From Aquificaceae bacterium (GTDB lineage Bacteria; Aquificota; Aquificia; Aquificales; Aquificaceae): a stretch of DNA of 64,000 nt. The DNA is taken from the NCBI GenBank assembly GCA_037925075.1, contig JAXSNR010000002.1, positions 96,001-160,000 on the forward strand, read 5' to 3'. The notes below the pieces were generated by a model. That model was not told where the DNA came from, made no database searches, and saw only the letters and a program-made list of their open reading frames with translations. Position 1 is the stretch's first letter. Every line of letters starts with the position of its first letter. Position numbers and translations under genes: made by a program. Positions 2,996-11,619 of the stretch are shown one piece after another.

Positions 2996-3342
2996 TGCCT
3001 TGGAATGTGATAGTAAAGAAAAGGTTTAACTGGGCTCACTTTCTTACGGATTATCACGGTGCTCCAGAACCCATACACGGACACACATGGACTGTGGAAA
3101 TTCACATAAGGGCGGACAGGGTGGATTCGGGAGGTATGGGTTATGACTTCATAGAAGTTGAAGCTTTTCTGAGGGAGCTGTTGCCAGATTACAGGCTTAT
3201 AAACGAGATAGTGGATTTTTCACCCAGCGCGGAGAACATGGCAAGATGGATTTACAAAAGGGTAAAGGAGAGGTACCCCACAGTCTCCAAGGTTGTGGTT
3301 TGGGAAAAAGAGGACTGTGGGGCTGAGTACTGGGAGGATTAA
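2995..3342 (+). CDS. queD: 6-carboxytetrahydropterin synthase (QueD/PTPS family)
   Basis: FNWAHFL...HGHTW, PSAENMA, VWE; start moved to ATG 2995, which overlaps the previous stop. Confidence 0.85.
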   Translation: MPWNVIVKKRFNWAHFLTDYHGAPEPIHGHTWTVEIHIRADRVDSGGMGYDFIEVEAFLRELLPDYRLINEIVDFSPSAENMARWIYKRVKERYPTVSKVVVWEKEDCGAEYWED

Positions 3343-3794
3343 CAGTTAATACAATTTGCCTCTTTTGCCTGTCTTGCCCTCTTTGCCATCTCAAGATCGT
3401 AGGCTTTGCCCTGCCAGAGCATCTGATAGACCACTTCGTAGGTGCTTTCCGCAAGTTCTGCAAGCTCTTTAAAGAGCCTATTGAAGCCCTCGCTTCTGTG
3501 GGATTCTTCGTGGTCCTCTAAGGACCTCCAGAAGGTGATTATGAGAACTTCCCTTTCCTTAAGGGGATGCTCTATGGTTTGACCGGCGGTAGAGCCCTCA
3601 AGGGAGACACCACCCGTATTCAGTGCCACAAAGCCTCCGTAAAAGCCCGTGTCCGAATGATAGGTTTTCACATGCTCGCAGAGGTATGCCACCTTCTCCG
3701 CCAAATCGTCAATGGTAACACCCTCCTTGAGTACCACATAGTTTATGTTAACTATTGCGTCCTCTGGAACATCCACTATATAGTTTCCATACAT
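3339..3794 (-). CDS. Dimeric alpha-beta barrel protein resembling the N-terminal catalytic half of sulfur oxygenase reductase
   Basis: SD GGAGGT; motifs LC(39)EH, GFYG, TFWRSLEDHEESH, YEVVY; C-terminal CxxC. Confidence 0.6.
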   Translation of the reverse strand: MYGNYIVDVPEDAIVNINYVVLKEGVTIDDLAEKVAYLCEHVKTYHSDTGFYGGFVALNTGGVSLEGSTAGQTIEHPLKEREVLIITFWRSLEDHEESHRSEGFNRLFKELAELAESTYEVVYQMLWQGKAYDLEMAKRARQAKEANCINC

Positions 3795-3852
3795 GTTGGC
3801 ACCTCCTTTAAGGTTTTAGGATATTCTAATATAGTTAAAGATTTATTCTGAG

Positions 3853-3880: not shown

Positions 3881-5041
3881 TTAGTGCCCTTCGTATGCCC
3901 TTTTGTAGAGTTTATAAAGGTCCTCAAGAGAGGGTTCTACGGGGTTTATGGAAAAAAGACCTCGCGAAAGCATATAAACATCCTCTGTGAGTCTTTCAAG
4001 CTTTTCCTTTTCCACCCCAAGGTCCTTTAAACTCAACCTAAGACCTACCCTTTGCAAGAAGTCCTCAAGAGCCTTAACAGCCATATGAGGCTTTGGTTCA
4101 TAGCCCATAAGTTCAGAAAAGAGAGAATACTTTTCAGGGTTTCCTCTGTGGTTGAAATCTGTAACCGCGACCGCAAGGGCGGAAAGTCCCTCCGCGTGTG
4201 CCACATGAGGGTAGTGGGCGGAAACTGGATGCTCCATGCCATGTATGAGGGCTACCCTCTTTTTGTCTATGGCTATACCTGCAAGCATACTCGCATAGCT
4301 CATATAGGTCCTTGCCTGTAAGTTTTGAGGTTCTTCAAGGGCTATGGGAAGCCATTTTTTTATAAGGACTATTGCCTTCATGGCAAGTTCTTCAGCCAAG
4401 GCGTTGGAAAGTCTGTTGGTAAGAGATTCAAGGGCATGTATGAGGGCGTCTATACCAGTTATGGCGGTAAGCCTTCTGTCCATAGAAAGGGTAAGCTCTG
4501 GGTCAATGAGGGCTACCTTTGGATAGTTGAGGGAGTGTGATATAACCATCTTCTCCTTTCTTATGGGGTTTGAGATCACCGAGTACCTGTTTACCTCGCT
4601 TCCCGTCCCTGCGGTGGTGGGTATGCATATCACAGGCCTGTTTAAAAAGGGTATAAGCCTTGGACCTTCTGGGTAGTTCACATAATCCCATGCATAGCCC
4701 TCGTTGGAGGAGACTATGGATACTGCCTTTGCGGAGTCAAGGCTACTGCCACCCCCAAGGCCTACTATGTAATCTATTTTTTCCTTAACCACCAATTCGC
4801 TTGCAATATTTACCATCTTGTCCGTAGGGTTTGGTTCTATACCATCAAAAACCAGCACCTCCTCCGCTCCATTTCTTTTTAGAGATTCGACCACCTTTTG
4901 AAGAGAGCCATTTTCCTTAGTGCTTTTTTTGCCAGTGACTACAAGAACTCTGTATCCAAAACGCCTACCCACCTCGCCAACCTTATGTACAGAGCCTGTG
5001 CCGAATATTATCTCAACAGGAAGATAGAATTCAAAGTTCAT
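3881..5041 (-). CDS. Iron-containing alcohol dehydrogenase
   Basis: GLGGGSSLDSAK, PTTAGTGSE, DALIHALE, LIHGMEH, HAEG. Confidence 0.93.
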   Translation of the reverse strand: MNFEFYLPVEIIFGTGSVHKVGEVGRRFGYRVLVVTGKKSTKENGSLQKVVESLKRNGAEEVLVFDGIEPNPTDKMVNIASELVVKEKIDYIVGLGGGSSLDSAKAVSIVSSNEGYAWDYVNYPEGPRLIPFLNRPVICIPTTAGTGSEVNRYSVISNPIRKEKMVISHSLNYPKVALIDPELTLSMDRRLTAITGIDALIHALESLTNRLSNALAEELAMKAIVLIKKWLPIALEEPQNLQARTYMSYASMLAGIAIDKKRVALIHGMEHPVSAHYPHVAHAEGLSALAVAVTDFNHRGNPEKYSLFSELMGYEPKPHMAVKALEDFLQRVGLRLSLKDLGVEKEKLERLTEDVYMLSRGLFSINPVEPSLEDLYKLYKRAYEGH

Positions 5042-5534: not shown

Positions 5535-6869
5535 ATGTATTCCCTTCTTCACAGATACAAAAATATAACGGTAGCCATCATAGCTTTGGCTACGGGGGGC
5601 TTCTTTCTGTGGCTTTTCTTTACGGGAAGCACAAGAGATATAACAGCCCCCTCAAAAAGGTGCGTGGCGGAGGTTGGCTCTGGATGTATAACCTTGAAGG
5701 ATTACAGAAGAGAACTTCTAAGGTTTTCAAGCCTTCTTCAGAATTCTGAAATGGAGAAGCTTGTTAGAGAACAGGTCCTTTCAAACCTTATAGCTCAGGA
5801 GCTTCTCTTTCAGAAGGCAAAGAGTCTATCCCTTATGGCAAGCGACGAGGAAGTGGTGGAGGTTATAAAGTCGGATCCAACCTTTCAGGAAGGTGGGCTC
5901 TTTAGCTTTTCCAAGTACAGGGAGGTGCTTTCAAGGATAGGACTGACACCCGAAGAGTACGAAGAATACATAAGAAAGACCCTTAGCATTCAAAAGCTTA
6001 TCAATCTTTTGAGCAACGGCATTTACCTTACAGAAAAAGAGTTGGAGATAAACCTCCTTGCGGACAGCGTCCTTTTAAGCGGTAGCCTCTACCTTATAAC
6101 CTCCGCGGACATATCTCAAGCCTACAAGCCCTCGGAACAGGAGATACTGGAATACTACCAGAAAAACAAAGAGCTTTTCAAAAGACCAGAGGGAAAGATA
6201 GTTTGGATATGGAGAGAAAAGGACAAGGACAAGGCTCTTTCCCTGTACAACAACCTAAAAGCAGGCAAGGAAGCACAAGGTTATGAAGAGTACAGACTGC
6301 CAGAAGACATGCAAAAGATGGGAGAACCCTTAAATAAAGAAGCCCAAAGGCTCACGCCTCAGGAGAGACTAAACATCACAAAGCATGGTGAGGATTATGT
6401 GGTTTTGTACCTAAAGCAAGTTCTTCCTGCTGGCTATGAGGACCTTGAGAAGGTAAAAGAAAAGGTAAGGGAGATGCTTGTGGAGGAGAAGTCTCAGTCT
6501 TTGGTAAAAGAAAAGGCACAGGAGATAGCAAGGGAGCTAAAGGCTGGCAAAAGACCAGAAGCAAAAACCCTCAATTTCTCCGATACACCAGTATCACAGC
6601 TCAATGCGGTAGTAGACATAGATCAAAGGGACTTGGTGCAGGTAGCCCTGTCTCAGGATAAGGTTTTCGGTCCTTATCCTCTTAAGCAAGGCTTTGGCGT
6701 TTTGCTTGTGGAAAGGAGAAGCAAAAAGGAGCTAAAACCCGAAGAGAGGGAAGAAGCTGTTAAGGACATACTCAGCCTTAAATCCCAAGCCATGCTTAGC
6801 CAATACGTGGACTATCTGAGAAAGAACACAAAGGTACACATAAACAAAGAACTCCTTGGAGGTGGATAA
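5535..6869 (+). CDS. PpiD/SurA N-terminal-domain periplasmic chaperone
   Basis: N-terminal TM; LIAQELLFQKAKSL, PTFQEGGLFSFSKY; start at ATG 5535 lies 8 nt after TGcTAAAAT. Confidence 0.75.
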   Translation: MYSLLHRYKNITVAIIALATGGFFLWLFFTGSTRDITAPSKRCVAEVGSGCITLKDYRRELLRFSSLLQNSEMEKLVREQVLSNLIAQELLFQKAKSLSLMASDEEVVEVIKSDPTFQEGGLFSFSKYREVLSRIGLTPEEYEEYIRKTLSIQKLINLLSNGIYLTEKELEINLLADSVLLSGSLYLITSADISQAYKPSEQEILEYYQKNKELFKRPEGKIVWIWREKDKDKALSLYNNLKAGKEAQGYEEYRLPEDMQKMGEPLNKEAQRLTPQERLNITKHGEDYVVLYLKQVLPAGYEDLEKVKEKVREMLVEEKSQSLVKEKAQEIARELKAGKRPEAKTLNFSDTPVSQLNAVVDIDQRDLVQVALSQDKVFGPYPLKQGFGVLLVERRSKKELKPEEREEAVKDILSLKSQAMLSQYVDYLRKNTKVHINKELLGGG

Positions 6870-6870
6870 G

Positions 6871-7650
6871 ATGGAGAAAAAGTGGAGAACCGCCATAACC
6901 CAACATGTGGGGCATGAAACCTACATAAGAGGCTATAGGCTTTTGGACCTTGTGGGAAACCTTAGCTTTGCTCAAGCCATATACCTGATACTAAAGGGTG
7001 AGCTTCCCAATGAAAAGGAATCCAAGATGATGGAAGCCATGTTTGTATCTGTAATTGACCATGGTATTGCACCACCTTCTGTTATCGCCGCAAGGTCTGT
7101 GGCTTCTGGTGGTAATTCCCTAAATGTGGGCGTTGCGGCGGGTGTGCTTGCCTTTGGTTCTGCTCATGGCGGTGCCCTTGAGGACGCTATGAGATTCATA
7201 CAAGAGGGTGTCTCCAGTGGAAGAAGTGTAGAAGAGATAGTAAAAGGATACTTAGAAGCCAAAAAGCCCATACCCGGCTATGGGCACAGGTACTATAAGG
7301 ATTTTGACCCAAGGACAAAAAGACTGATGGATATAGCCAGAGAACTTGGCTTTTATGGCAAACACTGTGAGTTTGCGGAGGCTGTTCAAGAAGAGATTGG
7401 CAGGCAAAAGGGTAAAAAGCTGGTGCTAAACGTGGACGGAGGTATCGCTGCGGTTGCCTCAGAGATGGGCTTTGACTGGAGGCTTGGAAAGGGCTTTTTT
7501 ATAATAGGTAGAGTCCCGGGGCTTGTCGCCCATGTTTATGAGGAGCTTACCACAGAAAAGCCCTTCTCCAAAAGGCTTGACGAAGAGACAGAAACCGAGT
7601 ACACAGGAGTACCACCAAGGGAGCTACCTGCGGAGTTTAGGAAGCTGTGA
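6871..7650 (+). CDS. ccl: Citryl-CoA lyase (reductive TCA cycle)
   Basis: WRTAIT, IDHG, HGGA, IPGYGHR, LNVDG; short citrate-synthase-like fold; SD GGAGGT before ATG 6871. Confidence 0.92.
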   Translation: MEKKWRTAITQHVGHETYIRGYRLLDLVGNLSFAQAIYLILKGELPNEKESKMMEAMFVSVIDHGIAPPSVIAARSVASGGNSLNVGVAAGVLAFGSAHGGALEDAMRFIQEGVSSGRSVEEIVKGYLEAKKPIPGYGHRYYKDFDPRTKRLMDIARELGFYGKHCEFAEAVQEEIGRQKGKKLVLNVDGGIAAVASEMGFDWRLGKGFFIIGRVPGLVAHVYEELTTEKPFSKRLDEETETEYTGVPPRELPAEFRKL

Positions 7651-9341: not shown

Positions 9342-10733
9342 ATGTTTGGTGTGCTAAGGAAAAAACCTCTTGATAAAATTATGGAAGTTCTCGGAAAAGA
9401 AAAGGTAAAGACCTCCTTGGTGGAGAGGAAGTTATACTCCTATGATGCAACTCCCATACCCATTGAAAGGGCTTTGCCTTCTGGGGTGGTTTTCCCCGAA
9501 AGCCATGAGGATGTGGTCAAGCTCGTAAAAGTATGCTACGAAGAGAATATACCCATCTTTCCAAGAGGGGCGGGCTCGGGTTTGACTGGCGGTGCGGTAC
9601 CCACCTCAGATAGGGGCGTGGTGGTGTCCTTTGAAAGGATGAACCGCTTTGAGGTAGATGTGGATAACGCCACCGCAGAGGTCCAGCCGGGGGTGATAAC
9701 CGCCCAATTTCAGGACCATGTGGAAAAGTTGGGCCTTTTCTATCCACCGGACCCTTCCTCCTTTAAGTATTCCACGCTGGGGGGAAATATTGCAGAAAAT
9801 GCAGGTGGACCGAGATGTCTCAAATATGGAGTTACCCGCGAGTACGTGCTTGGACTGACGGCGGTCATAAAGGAGGGAGAAACCATTAAAGCGGGAAACC
9901 CCGTCATAAAGGATGTGGCAGGATACGACATTACAAAGCTTTTTGTGGGTTCTGAAGGGACCTTGGGACTGATAACTTCCGCAACTCTTAAGCTCATACC
10001 AAAGCCCAAGGCAAGGGCAACCGCCTTGGCACTTTTTGACAGGCTTGAGGATGTGGGAAGGGCTGTCACAAAAATATTCACCTCTGGCATATTCCCTTCA
10101 GCCCTTGAGTTTATGGACGAGGACGCCATAAGGGCTGTAGAAGACTACAAACCGGTGGGACTACCAAAGGTATCCGCCCTGCTTTTAATAGAGGTTGATG
10201 GCTCTCCCCTCAGTGTGCAGGAAGATATAAGGGACATAAAGAACCTTCTTCAACCCATGGGAATTGAAGTAAGGACAGCACAAAGCAAGGAAGAGGAAGA
10301 GAAGCTTTGGAGTGCAAGGAAGAACTTAGGTCCAGCTTTGGGAAACCTAAAAACTGGTAAGATAAACGAAGACATAGTCATACCCAGAATACACCTCTCT
10401 GAGGCAATCCCAGAGTTCAGAAGAGTCGCAAAGAAGTATAACCTACTCATGGTCATATTCGGTCATATAGGTGATGGAAACCTCCATGTGAACCTGCTAT
10501 ACGATAAGGCAAACAAGGAGGAAGAAAGCAGGGCGGAAAGGGCTGTGGATGAGGTTTTTGAGATAGCCCTCAAGTACAGGGGGTCCATAACGGGAGAGCA
10601 TGGTGTGGGGCTTACAAAAAGGAAGTTTCTCCAATGGCAGTTTGGACCTGTAGGGTACGAAATGCTAAAAGGTATAAAGAGGCTCTTTGACCCTAAAAAT
10701 CTGTTCAATCCCGGTAAGGTTGTGGAGGTGTAA
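9342..10733 (+). CDS. FAD-linked oxidase, GlcD/D-lactate dehydrogenase family
   Basis: PRGAGSGLTGG, STLGGNIAENAGG, GSEGTLG, GHIGDGNLH, GEHGVG, NPGK. Confidence 0.92.
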   Translation: MFGVLRKKPLDKIMEVLGKEKVKTSLVERKLYSYDATPIPIERALPSGVVFPESHEDVVKLVKVCYEENIPIFPRGAGSGLTGGAVPTSDRGVVVSFERMNRFEVDVDNATAEVQPGVITAQFQDHVEKLGLFYPPDPSSFKYSTLGGNIAENAGGPRCLKYGVTREYVLGLTAVIKEGETIKAGNPVIKDVAGYDITKLFVGSEGTLGLITSATLKLIPKPKARATALALFDRLEDVGRAVTKIFTSGIFPSALEFMDEDAIRAVEDYKPVGLPKVSALLLIEVDGSPLSVQEDIRDIKNLLQPMGIEVRTAQSKEEEEKLWSARKNLGPALGNLKTGKINEDIVIPRIHLSEAIPEFRRVAKKYNLLMVIFGHIGDGNLHVNLLYDKANKEEESRAERAVDEVFEIALKYRGSITGEHGVGLTKRKFLQWQFGPVGYEMLKGIKRLFDPKNLFNPGKVVEV

Positions 10734-10734
10734 T

Positions 10735-11619
10735 ATGAAGAGACTAATTTTTGCCCTTCTAACCTTTGTAAGTTTAAGCACCGCAACCGACGAGTTTGTA
10801 AAGGGTCTGATAGAAAAATTTATGGAGAAGGGTAAATCCGCATGGTGGTGGGACTCCAAGTGGTGGGAAGAGGGTTATATAGAGAACATGCCTAACTACA
10901 AGGTAAGGGTTGAAACCCTCGTAGTTAAGAAAAGAGATGTGGAGATACCAGTCTATGTGTACAGGCCAGATGACAAGGAAAGATACCCTGGCGTTCTTTT
11001 TATACATGGAAGGCGCGGGCTTGATGAACTCTTCCAACTGCATGCAAAAAGGCTTGCCAGCAAAGGGTTTGTTGTAATAGCACCAGACCTTTACACTGGA
11101 AGGCTTATACCCCAGTTTCCCATAGAGCACGACCCTGTGCTGGAGGAAGACCTTGACGCAGTCCTTGTTTATGCCCTTAACCGAAATGATATAAAGAGTA
11201 AGAAACTCTGTGCTTACGGGCTCACCAGAGGTGGCTACTACGGAATCAGATTGCTTGTAACCTTCAAAAGACAAGAGAAGGACATAGCCTGCTTTGTGGC
11301 TTACTATCCCCATATGCAAAACCCAAACGCCCCAGAACCTGAACAAGTTTACCGCTACGCTCCTGAATGGGAAAGTCTTAAGATACCAACCCTTATACTT
11401 GTAGGCGAAAATGAACAATATCAGAGAATAAGACCAGCACTGGTGGCTGTGGAACACCTCAGAGCTAAGGGTGTGCCCATATGGATAGTGGTTTATCCGG
11501 GTGTGGGTAGAGGCTTTGACTTTAGGCTTGATAGGAGAACCTTTGCGGACGACCTTGCCTCAAAGGATGCCCTCATAAGGTCTTCCCTCTTTATGAAGAA
11601 GTATTTAGAAAAGGAATAG
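10735..11619 (+). CDS. Secreted dienelactone-hydrolase-family (alpha/beta hydrolase) protein
   Basis: Signal-like MKRLIFALLTFVSLSTA; PGVLFIHG, LASKGFVVIAPDLY, GLTRGG, YPGVGRGF. Confidence 0.8.
   Translation: MKRLIFALLTFVSLSTATDEFVKGLIEKFMEKGKSAWWWDSKWWEEGYIENMPNYKVRVETLVVKKRDVEIPVYVYRPDDKERYPGVLFIHGRRGLDELFQLHAKRLASKGFVVIAPDLYTGRLIPQFPIEHDPVLEEDLDAVLVYALNRNDIKSKKLCAYGLTRGGYYGIRLLVTFKRQEKDIACFVAYYPHMQNPNAPEPEQVYRYAPEWESLKIPTLILVGENEQYQRIRPALVAVEHLRAKGVPIWIVVYPGVGRGFDFRLDRRTFADDLASKDALIRSSLFMKKYLEKE

Follow-up and report, generated by a model that had tools for sequence, protein, structure and literature searches.

A single-domain relative of the catalytic half of sulfur oxygenase reductase in an Aquificaceae genome and its association with rDsr and sHdr

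Introduction

How cells activate zero-valent sulfur in the cytoplasm, whether from stores or from uptake, so that it can enter rDsr or sHdr is, to our knowledge, only partly understood. PDO/ETHE1, a mononuclear 2-His-1-carboxylate iron enzyme whose substrate is glutathione persulfide, has an unrelated metallo-beta-lactamase fold, and its likeness to the family described here is one of analogy only. The closest described system is sulfur oxygenase reductase (SOR; PF07682, NF047630; PDB 6m35, 2cb2, 6qpa, 7x9w, 9rdn), a protein of about 310 aa that forms a fused pseudo-dimer within a 24-mer hollow sphere. PMC7398979 gives His86, His90 and Glu114 as its iron ligands, and reports that the C31A variant is inactive and that the C101A and C104A variants lose activity about tenfold, so that about a tenth is left. 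The ABM/IsdG barrels (PF03992; RslO4 7bio, SnoaB 3kg0, IsdG 1xbw, IsdI 4fnh) are related in fold, and such barrels are described in PMC4835899 as arising either by homodimerisation or by duplication and fusion. The known sulfur relay is treated in PMC11094781.

Here, we report on a gene in a window of 64,000 nucleotides, the whole stretch of DNA that was analysed, from an Aquificaceae bacterium. A sequence-only reading had taken its product for a half-size SOR-like protein with a Cys and a 2-His-1-Glu site in a probable sulfur oxidiser. We found that this SOR relative is a member of a widespread uncharacterised family.

Results

The gene and its host

The gene reads from 3794 to 3339 on the minus strand (ATG start, 151 codons), and its features are collected in Table 1. 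The open reading frame, the strong Shine-Dalgarno sequence and all the motifs quoted in the sequence-only reading are present, and its numbering of C39, H95, H99, E120, C148 and C151 was correct. Compared with six related loci, the differences lie mostly at third codon positions (e.g., 6/5/60 over the three positions, with 57 synonymous and 10 non-synonymous codons in an example comparison), which indicates a real gene under purifying selection. The plus-strand reading of 3339-3794 contains an internal stop and was rejected.

Table 1 Features of the SOR-relative gene in the window
Feature	Position	Strand	Basis
SOR-relative gene, 151 aa, single domain, ferredoxin-like/ABM fold with C-terminal helix	3339..3794	minus	ORF and model
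Shine-Dalgarno-like AGGAGGT, 6 nt 5' of ATG	3801..3807	minus	Sequence
Cys39, at the position of SOR Cys31 (essential, persulfide-forming in SOR)	3678..3680	minus	Alignments; 114/114, 101/101
His95-x3-His99, at the positions of SOR iron ligands His86/His90	3498..3512	minus	114/114 each, 101/101; helix 92-99 in model
Glu120, at the position of SOR iron ligand Glu114	3435..3437	minus	113/114, 101/101
Conserved hairpin, residues 59-68	3591..3620	minus	N59, G61, S64, E66, G67 and S68 invariant; dimer model
Ala115, Cys in most homologues; segment that holds Cys101/Cys104 in SOR, register ambiguous	3450..3452	minus	Cys in 103/114 close homologues and 97/101 distant/phage copies
C-terminal CxxC (C148, C151), lineage-specific tail, low model confidence	3342..3353	minus	5/114, 9/80 loci; pLDDT 53 in last block

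The 3' neighbour is a QueD-like gene, arranged tail-to-tail, and a gene for an iron-containing alcohol dehydrogenase (Fe-ADH) lies 86 nt 5' of the SOR-relative gene. The best model for this dehydrogenase (3881-5041, minus strand) is ErcA, at a score below cut-off, and its gene is found upstream in the same orientation in many Aquificaceae. Pfam/NCBIfam annotation of these window neighbours (Fe-ADH, QueD) revealed no sulfur genes. The gene order dksA-like/Fe-ADH/gene/queD recurs in 10-11 of 80 loci, nearly all from Aquificaceae. The local operon was discarded as a functional clue, being uninformative, with promoter and terminator counts at chance level. Farther along, the window encodes a citryl-CoA lyase (6856-7650, plus strand; NF004869 above cut-off), which fits the reverse TCA cycle of Aquificaceae, and a protein of the dienelactone hydrolase family whose N-terminal stretch is rich in Trp and which probably has a signal peptide (10687-11619, plus strand).

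A genome search showed that the source genome carries soxB, and also a tusA-dsrE2-hdrC-B-A-x-C-B cluster with GcvH-like and lipS1 genes, which together constitute sHdr; the GcvH-like gene would correspond to LbpA. The suspicion that the host oxidises sulfur is in line with this gene content. No full-length SOR was found in the source genome, the sole PF07682 match being the SOR-relative gene itself, nor was a separate SOR second half found elsewhere in it.

A widespread family with a conserved Cys/His/His/Glu set

A total of 129 close homologues were found, and 113 of the best 120 were aligned with the query to give 114 rows, seven short or near-duplicate homologues being left out. C39, H95 and H99 are each present in all 114 rows and E120 in 113. 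The search of GTDB genomes confirmed at least 587 relatives, the best 80 of which include Aquificaceae, Thioalkalivibrio, Sedimenticola, other Chromatiales, Rhodocyclaceae and Rhodospirillaceae; the closest named relatives among the GTDB matches listed are Aquificaceae. All four residues are kept in 79 of these best 80 loci, and the odd one, with gaps at the site positions, is probably a mis-picked ORF. A second clade, at 30-40% identity, gave 21 viral and 80 metagenome loci. Adding a further viral locus, from the first clade, brings the distant or viral loci to 102, of which 101 yielded an ORF. The four residues are kept in all 101 of these copies, including 22 of 22 viral ones, although one residue was part of some search patterns for these loci and its count is slightly inflated. 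Both histidines are absent from 2 of 20 hand-picked diverse members. Thus, the site that had been judged intact from one protein is conserved across its homologues.

The C-terminal CxxC, by contrast, is found in only 5 of 114 homologues and 9 of the best 80 GTDB loci, all Aquificaceae-like, and at these counts we rejected both a family-wide feature and the earlier suggestion that the SOR CxxC had moved to the C-terminus.

The proteins are annotated as hypothetical, as had been expected, or under misleading names: NCBI uses "ligand-binding protein SH3", JGI uses "HmoA" or "YgiN", and "heme-degrading monooxygenase" is also in use. No Pfam or NCBIfam model covers the family, and the ESM Atlas returned nothing beyond unnamed clusters of the same family. 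No copies were found in annotated phage and plasmid records, and no fused forms of 350-2000 aa were seen among 7999 candidates, which is weak evidence. A literature search, mostly outside subscription papers, supplements and proteome tables, found no account of the family, and the one supplement searched gave no match; expression data may exist under locus tags in proteome tables or supplements.

Two rhodanese-fused relatives, P0218 (from a Thermoplasmatales archaeon) and P0222, keep the same Cys/His/His/Glu set and the same hairpin, but differ in their N-terminal rhodanese domain, in the lack of the C-terminal helix and in an identity of about 30%. They match SOR at E 2e-10, and their best PDB matches are SORs, on either half. 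Weak matches to Pfam CT0912-like_C were also seen.

Relation to SOR

The spacing from the Cys to the first His is 56 residues here vs 55 in SOR, and that from the second His to the Glu is 21 vs 24, which upholds the order and spacing on which the initial comparison was built. The window protein alone scores below the thresholds of the SOR models, with E 1.3e-4 and 21.4 bits against a cut-off of 25 for PF07682 (profile positions 4-117 of 300) and E 1.4e-4 and 21 bits against a cut-off of 400 for NF047630. Nine of its ten best PDB sequence matches are SORs, and at E<=0.1 the Pfam SOR model matches 108 of the 114 family members and the ABM model 34. When 20 diverse members were aligned with 30 SORs by hhalign, the probability was 95.5% (E 1.4e-8), with C39, H95, H99 and E120 in register with SOR C31, H86, H90 and E114; the profile of close homologues alone gave 46% (E 2e-4). 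Taken half by half, the N-terminal half of SOR gave 95.7% and the C-terminal half 5%. The diverse-member profile, searched against all PDB sequences, had SORs as its nine best matches (E 8e-7 to 1e-4), and the first ABM protein came at E 0.25. The likeness to SOR, as judged by these comparisons, is more than chance, and homology of the family to the N-terminal catalytic half of SOR, which the sequence-only reading had proposed, is supported at the sequence level.

The two families share the GF-x-G and T-x-W motifs, the ferredoxin-like fold and sulfur-oxidising hosts. They differ in that the window protein is a single domain of 151 aa, for which a homodimer is predicted in place of the two-domain fusion, and that it has neither the chimney segment, the Cys101-x-x-Cys104 pair nor the second half. 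It has no Cys in the corresponding segment, and most homologues have one there, at position 115. An unrooted tree of 39 rows places the family on a separate branch (support 90/71), apart from both SOR halves. A recent truncation of SOR was rejected on this ground, and an unrooted tree gives no direction of descent. The family is not SOR proper, and probably works like SOR on persulfide or polysulfide sulfur.

Predicted structure and homodimer

The AlphaFold2 model is a ferredoxin-like domain predicted with confidence (pLDDT 87.9). In it, helix 28-46 carries C39, helix 92-99 carries H95 and H99, and strand 115-124 carries E120. In the fold search, ABM barrels were at the top (Z 14.1, rmsd 2.6, 106 residues aligned), and SOR followed at Z 10.5-10.9 and rmsd 3.0-3.7 with the longest alignments (124-130 residues), its best-fitting part being the C-terminal, iron-free half (SOR residues 145-308). 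Foldseek had no SOR chain among the matches listed. The predicted model therefore confirms membership of the superfamily without singling out SOR. The sequence-only reading had counted as evidence against itself either top matches to ordinary barrels with the site residues not clustered, or site residues that are not conserved among homologues; the top matches were indeed ordinary ABM barrels and SOR was fitted on its C-terminal half, and the residues are conserved.

The two-copy homodimer model scored 0.87 against 0.00 for the best control. In the calibration, 20 of 30 solved pairs attained the score of 0.87, as did 1 of 23 single chains, and contact agreement was at least 80% and pLDDT at least 86 across the runs of the model. 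In the model, strand 120-126 pairs with the partner's strand 55-63, and residues 39, 95, 99 and 120 lie in the interface together with hairpin 59-68, which touches the partner's strand 120-126 and may form a lid over the partner's putative site. The hairpin resembles one in the C-terminal half of SOR (PDB sequence match to the second domain), and this likeness would fit a homodimer whose chains cap each other's sites. The strand-swapped homodimer mode is also common to ABM/IsdG barrels, and the favourable dimer score may reflect likeness to solved ABM dimers.

Distribution with dsr, sHdr and sox

In the family of G178 (Rhodocyclaceae; 221 genomes), the gene is present in 34 genomes, dsrA in 48 and soxB in 98. 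dsrA is present in 33 of the 34 carriers, and 15 of the 48 dsrA genomes are without the gene; only 1 of 52 genomes with soxB and without dsrA carries it, and none of the 121 with neither. The gene and dsrA share a contig in 17 carriers, less than 30 kb apart in 11 of them. In seven such regions, with genes named by eye, the gene follows a dsrN-like or dsrR-like gene in three, separated from it by a block of other sequence, and comes directly after soxB in two. The order of G182 (Rhodospirillaceae; 196 genomes) gave a similar picture, with dsrA in 39 of 40 carriers, the gene in 1 of 117 dsrA-negative genomes, and 40 of 79 dsrA genomes without it. For the two exceptional carriers, one in each group, a dsrB match was not found either.

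All 53 strong matches in the 178 Aquificota genomes fall in the sHdrB1-bearing family f1. sHdrB1 accompanies 46 of them, and of the seven without it, six are genomes that are 54-91% complete; 29 of 75 sHdrB1 genomes are without the gene. The sister family f2 has soxB in 34 of 50 genomes, and sHdrB1 and a strong match in 0 of 50 each. Weak f2 matches were set aside, three of the six inspected being ordinary ABM proteins without the Cys/His pair. In G035, G037 and G039, which belong to one genus, the aligned part of each sHdrB1 match contains a single TAG, which probably reflects no more than a later start. sHdrB1 without dsrA is seen in one Thioalkalivibrio carrier.

These counts include kin, which are not independent of one another, and for Aquificota the contrast comes down to one split between lineages. 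Even so, the three lineages agree that the gene almost implies rDsr or sHdr, and that the reverse is not true. The family tracks cytoplasmic sulfur oxidation and not Sox. Of the sox, hdr and dsr genes whose co-occurrence the sequence-only reading had proposed as a check, those for dsr and sHdr do co-occur with the gene.

Gene neighbourhoods, phage copies and coexistence with SOR

Genes for sat, soeBC, a likely PDO with an ArsR-rhodanese regulator, YeeE, dsrC, tusA/dsrE, rhodanese or CysE/cysteine desulfurase lie within 2 kb of the gene at 18 of 80, 3 of 22 and 27 of 79 loci; these figures are illustrative, and the enrichment in neighbour distance was not counted as a test, because the queries were chosen from the neighbours. 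The likely PDO gene (PF00753) is about 1 kb away in five Thioalkalivibrio loci, and the ArsR-rhodanese regulator adjoins the gene in nine. At six second-clade loci (L156, L158, L166, L171, L180, L185) the gene adjoins a CysE-like gene, mostly with a cysteine desulfurase, and in three of them a gene of 344-366 aa without a Pfam match comes next, by eye a possible family 2A encapsulin shell. Five others (L147, L153, L154, L164, L198) are divergent from a dsrE-tusA-FAD oxidoreductase (SQR-like) cassette.

The site is intact at all 22 viral loci (L109-L130, IMG/VR contigs). In several of these the gene sits amid phage structural genes (T4 baseplate families) and next to IscA/IscU, glutaredoxin, ring-hydroxylating alpha subunit, peroxiredoxin or dsrC genes; some may be cellular fragments.

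The family is far commoner than SOR in Aquificota (53 vs 1 of 178 genomes). The one genome with full SOR, G001, has a protein identical to the NCBI-named Aquifex aeolicus SOR. Its orthologue of the small gene (L101:3536-4002, minus strand, contig C1) is split by a one-base assembly gap, and the extra base is present in 4 of 4 sequencing runs (two RNA, two metagenome), so the gene is intact in G001, alongside full SOR. The split had suggested that the two genes exclude each other, an idea rejected for the same reason. RNA-library contigs (two runs of one study) cover the orthologue, and contigs of this kind cannot show transcription. The sHdrB1 match of G001 has internal stops too, and a 625-aa gene (L101:1658-3535, plus strand) is convergent with the orthologue. 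An assembly error of one base could hide the gene from annotation-based proteomics.

Discussion

We regard the family as an uncharacterised single-domain variant of SOR and a strong candidate for a sulfur enzyme. With a probability of roughly 0.55, we consider it to be a cytoplasmic homodimeric mononuclear non-heme iron enzyme that resembles the catalytic half of SOR, acts on sulfane sulfur and is accessory to rDsr or sHdr. Homology, the conserved Cys with His/His/Glu, the fold class, co-occurrence and the dimer model were computed, and from them we infer the identity of the metal, a persulfide on Cys39, the use of O2, the products and the role. Two chains would form an eight-stranded barrel with two sites, as SOR does from its two fused halves, and His95, His99 and Glu120 would bind Fe. 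Cys39 would take up sulfur from polysulfide or persulfide, either directly or through rhodanese, TusA or DsrE carriers, and the iron would activate O2 or polarise the sulfur chain, with sulfite or thiosulfate and sulfide being released. The role would likely be to mobilise the sulfane sulfur pooled in the cytoplasm, or to control its overflow, rather than to conserve energy in a core step, because many rDsr and sHdr genomes are without the gene. Several observations count against this SOR-like reading: fold searches favour ABM proteins, some diverse members lack both site histidines, there are dsrA and sHdrB1 genomes without the gene, parts of SOR are missing, and the neighbours in the window are not sulfur genes. 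Moreover, many organisms with rDsr grow where O2 is scarce or absent.

One alternative needs no O2, and in it the protein is a sulfane-sulfur carrier or polysulfide-cleaving protein, Cys39 holds the persulfide chain, the metal (Fe, or Zn/Mn) only polarises it, and the sulfur is passed to a relay of Rhd, TusA, DsrE and DsrC. The tight link to rDsr and sHdr and not to Sox agrees with such a carrier, as do the rhodanese fusions, the phage copies L121 and L124 beside dsrC, and the fact that DsrC, rhodanese, TusA/DsrE and CysE with cysteine desulfurase are nearest to some distant copies, a pattern drawn from a biased query set. However, the complete 2-His-1-Glu set is conserved to the same degree as the Cys, and no sulfur relay protein that we know of needs a metal triad; we regard such a protein as unlikely. 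SOR-like chemistry could instead have a protective purpose, in which sulfane sulfur is spent on removing O2 so that the O2-sensitive Dsr/Hdr and Fe-S machinery is spared. IscA/IscU, glutaredoxin or peroxiredoxin genes are often found close to distant and phage copies, and the rhodanese-fused form of the Thermoplasmatales archaeon points the same way, but no stress genes flank the gene in the window, and oxygen defence seems to us distinctly improbable.

A sensor of sulfide or persulfide, or a metal-binding chaperone, would be non-catalytic and keep the site for binding only. The mostly stand-alone gene with variable neighbours and the regulator adjacent to it in the Thioalkalivibrio loci would suit such a function, which we nevertheless hold to be quite improbable, since the protein has no DNA-binding or signalling domain, its conservation is enzyme-like and the rhodanese fusions suggest delivery of a substrate. 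The reading least in keeping with the data is that of an ordinary ABM protein, either a heme-degrading monooxygenase (IsdG/HmoA) or a cofactor-free quinol monooxygenase. It would account for the top structural matches, the JGI names and the ferredoxin-like dimeric alpha+beta barrel of IsdG/HmoA, which the model reproduces, and it agrees with the invariant Asn18, which is like Asn7 of the IsdG triad (Asn7/Trp67/His77, as given in PMC6018153). But Ser98 stands at the position of the ruffling Trp and Phe108 at that of the heme-ligand His in an alignment bridged through an IsdI-like protein, and both are invariant (114/114 each). The family has instead the Cys with His/His/Glu, the long conserved hairpin and the C-terminal helix, the ABM model PF03992 scores 17.2 bits against a gathering cut-off of 23.1, and a link to dsr is not predicted by heme use. 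We thus give an ordinary ABM function very little credence.

Returning to the SOR-like enzyme, what stands out is a small soluble protein with a predicted SOR-type site, whose distribution follows rDsr and sHdr in three lineages and which is also found in phages. The thermostable 151-aa version would be simple to produce and to assay, and could, as a minimal form of the SOR site, help to settle the disputed mechanism of SOR. We tentatively entertain a wider view, possible though short of an even chance, that the family represents the catalytic unit of SOR in a free-standing homodimeric form, similar to the unit whose duplication gave rise to SOR, and an unrecognised enzyme of cytoplasmic sulfur oxidation that converts or mobilises polysulfide or persulfide for rDsr and sHdr users among Aquificota and Alpha-, Beta- and Gammaproteobacteria, carried also by phages as an auxiliary sulfur gene. 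If this is true, SOR-type chemistry would be common, not rare, in neutrophilic sulfur oxidisers.
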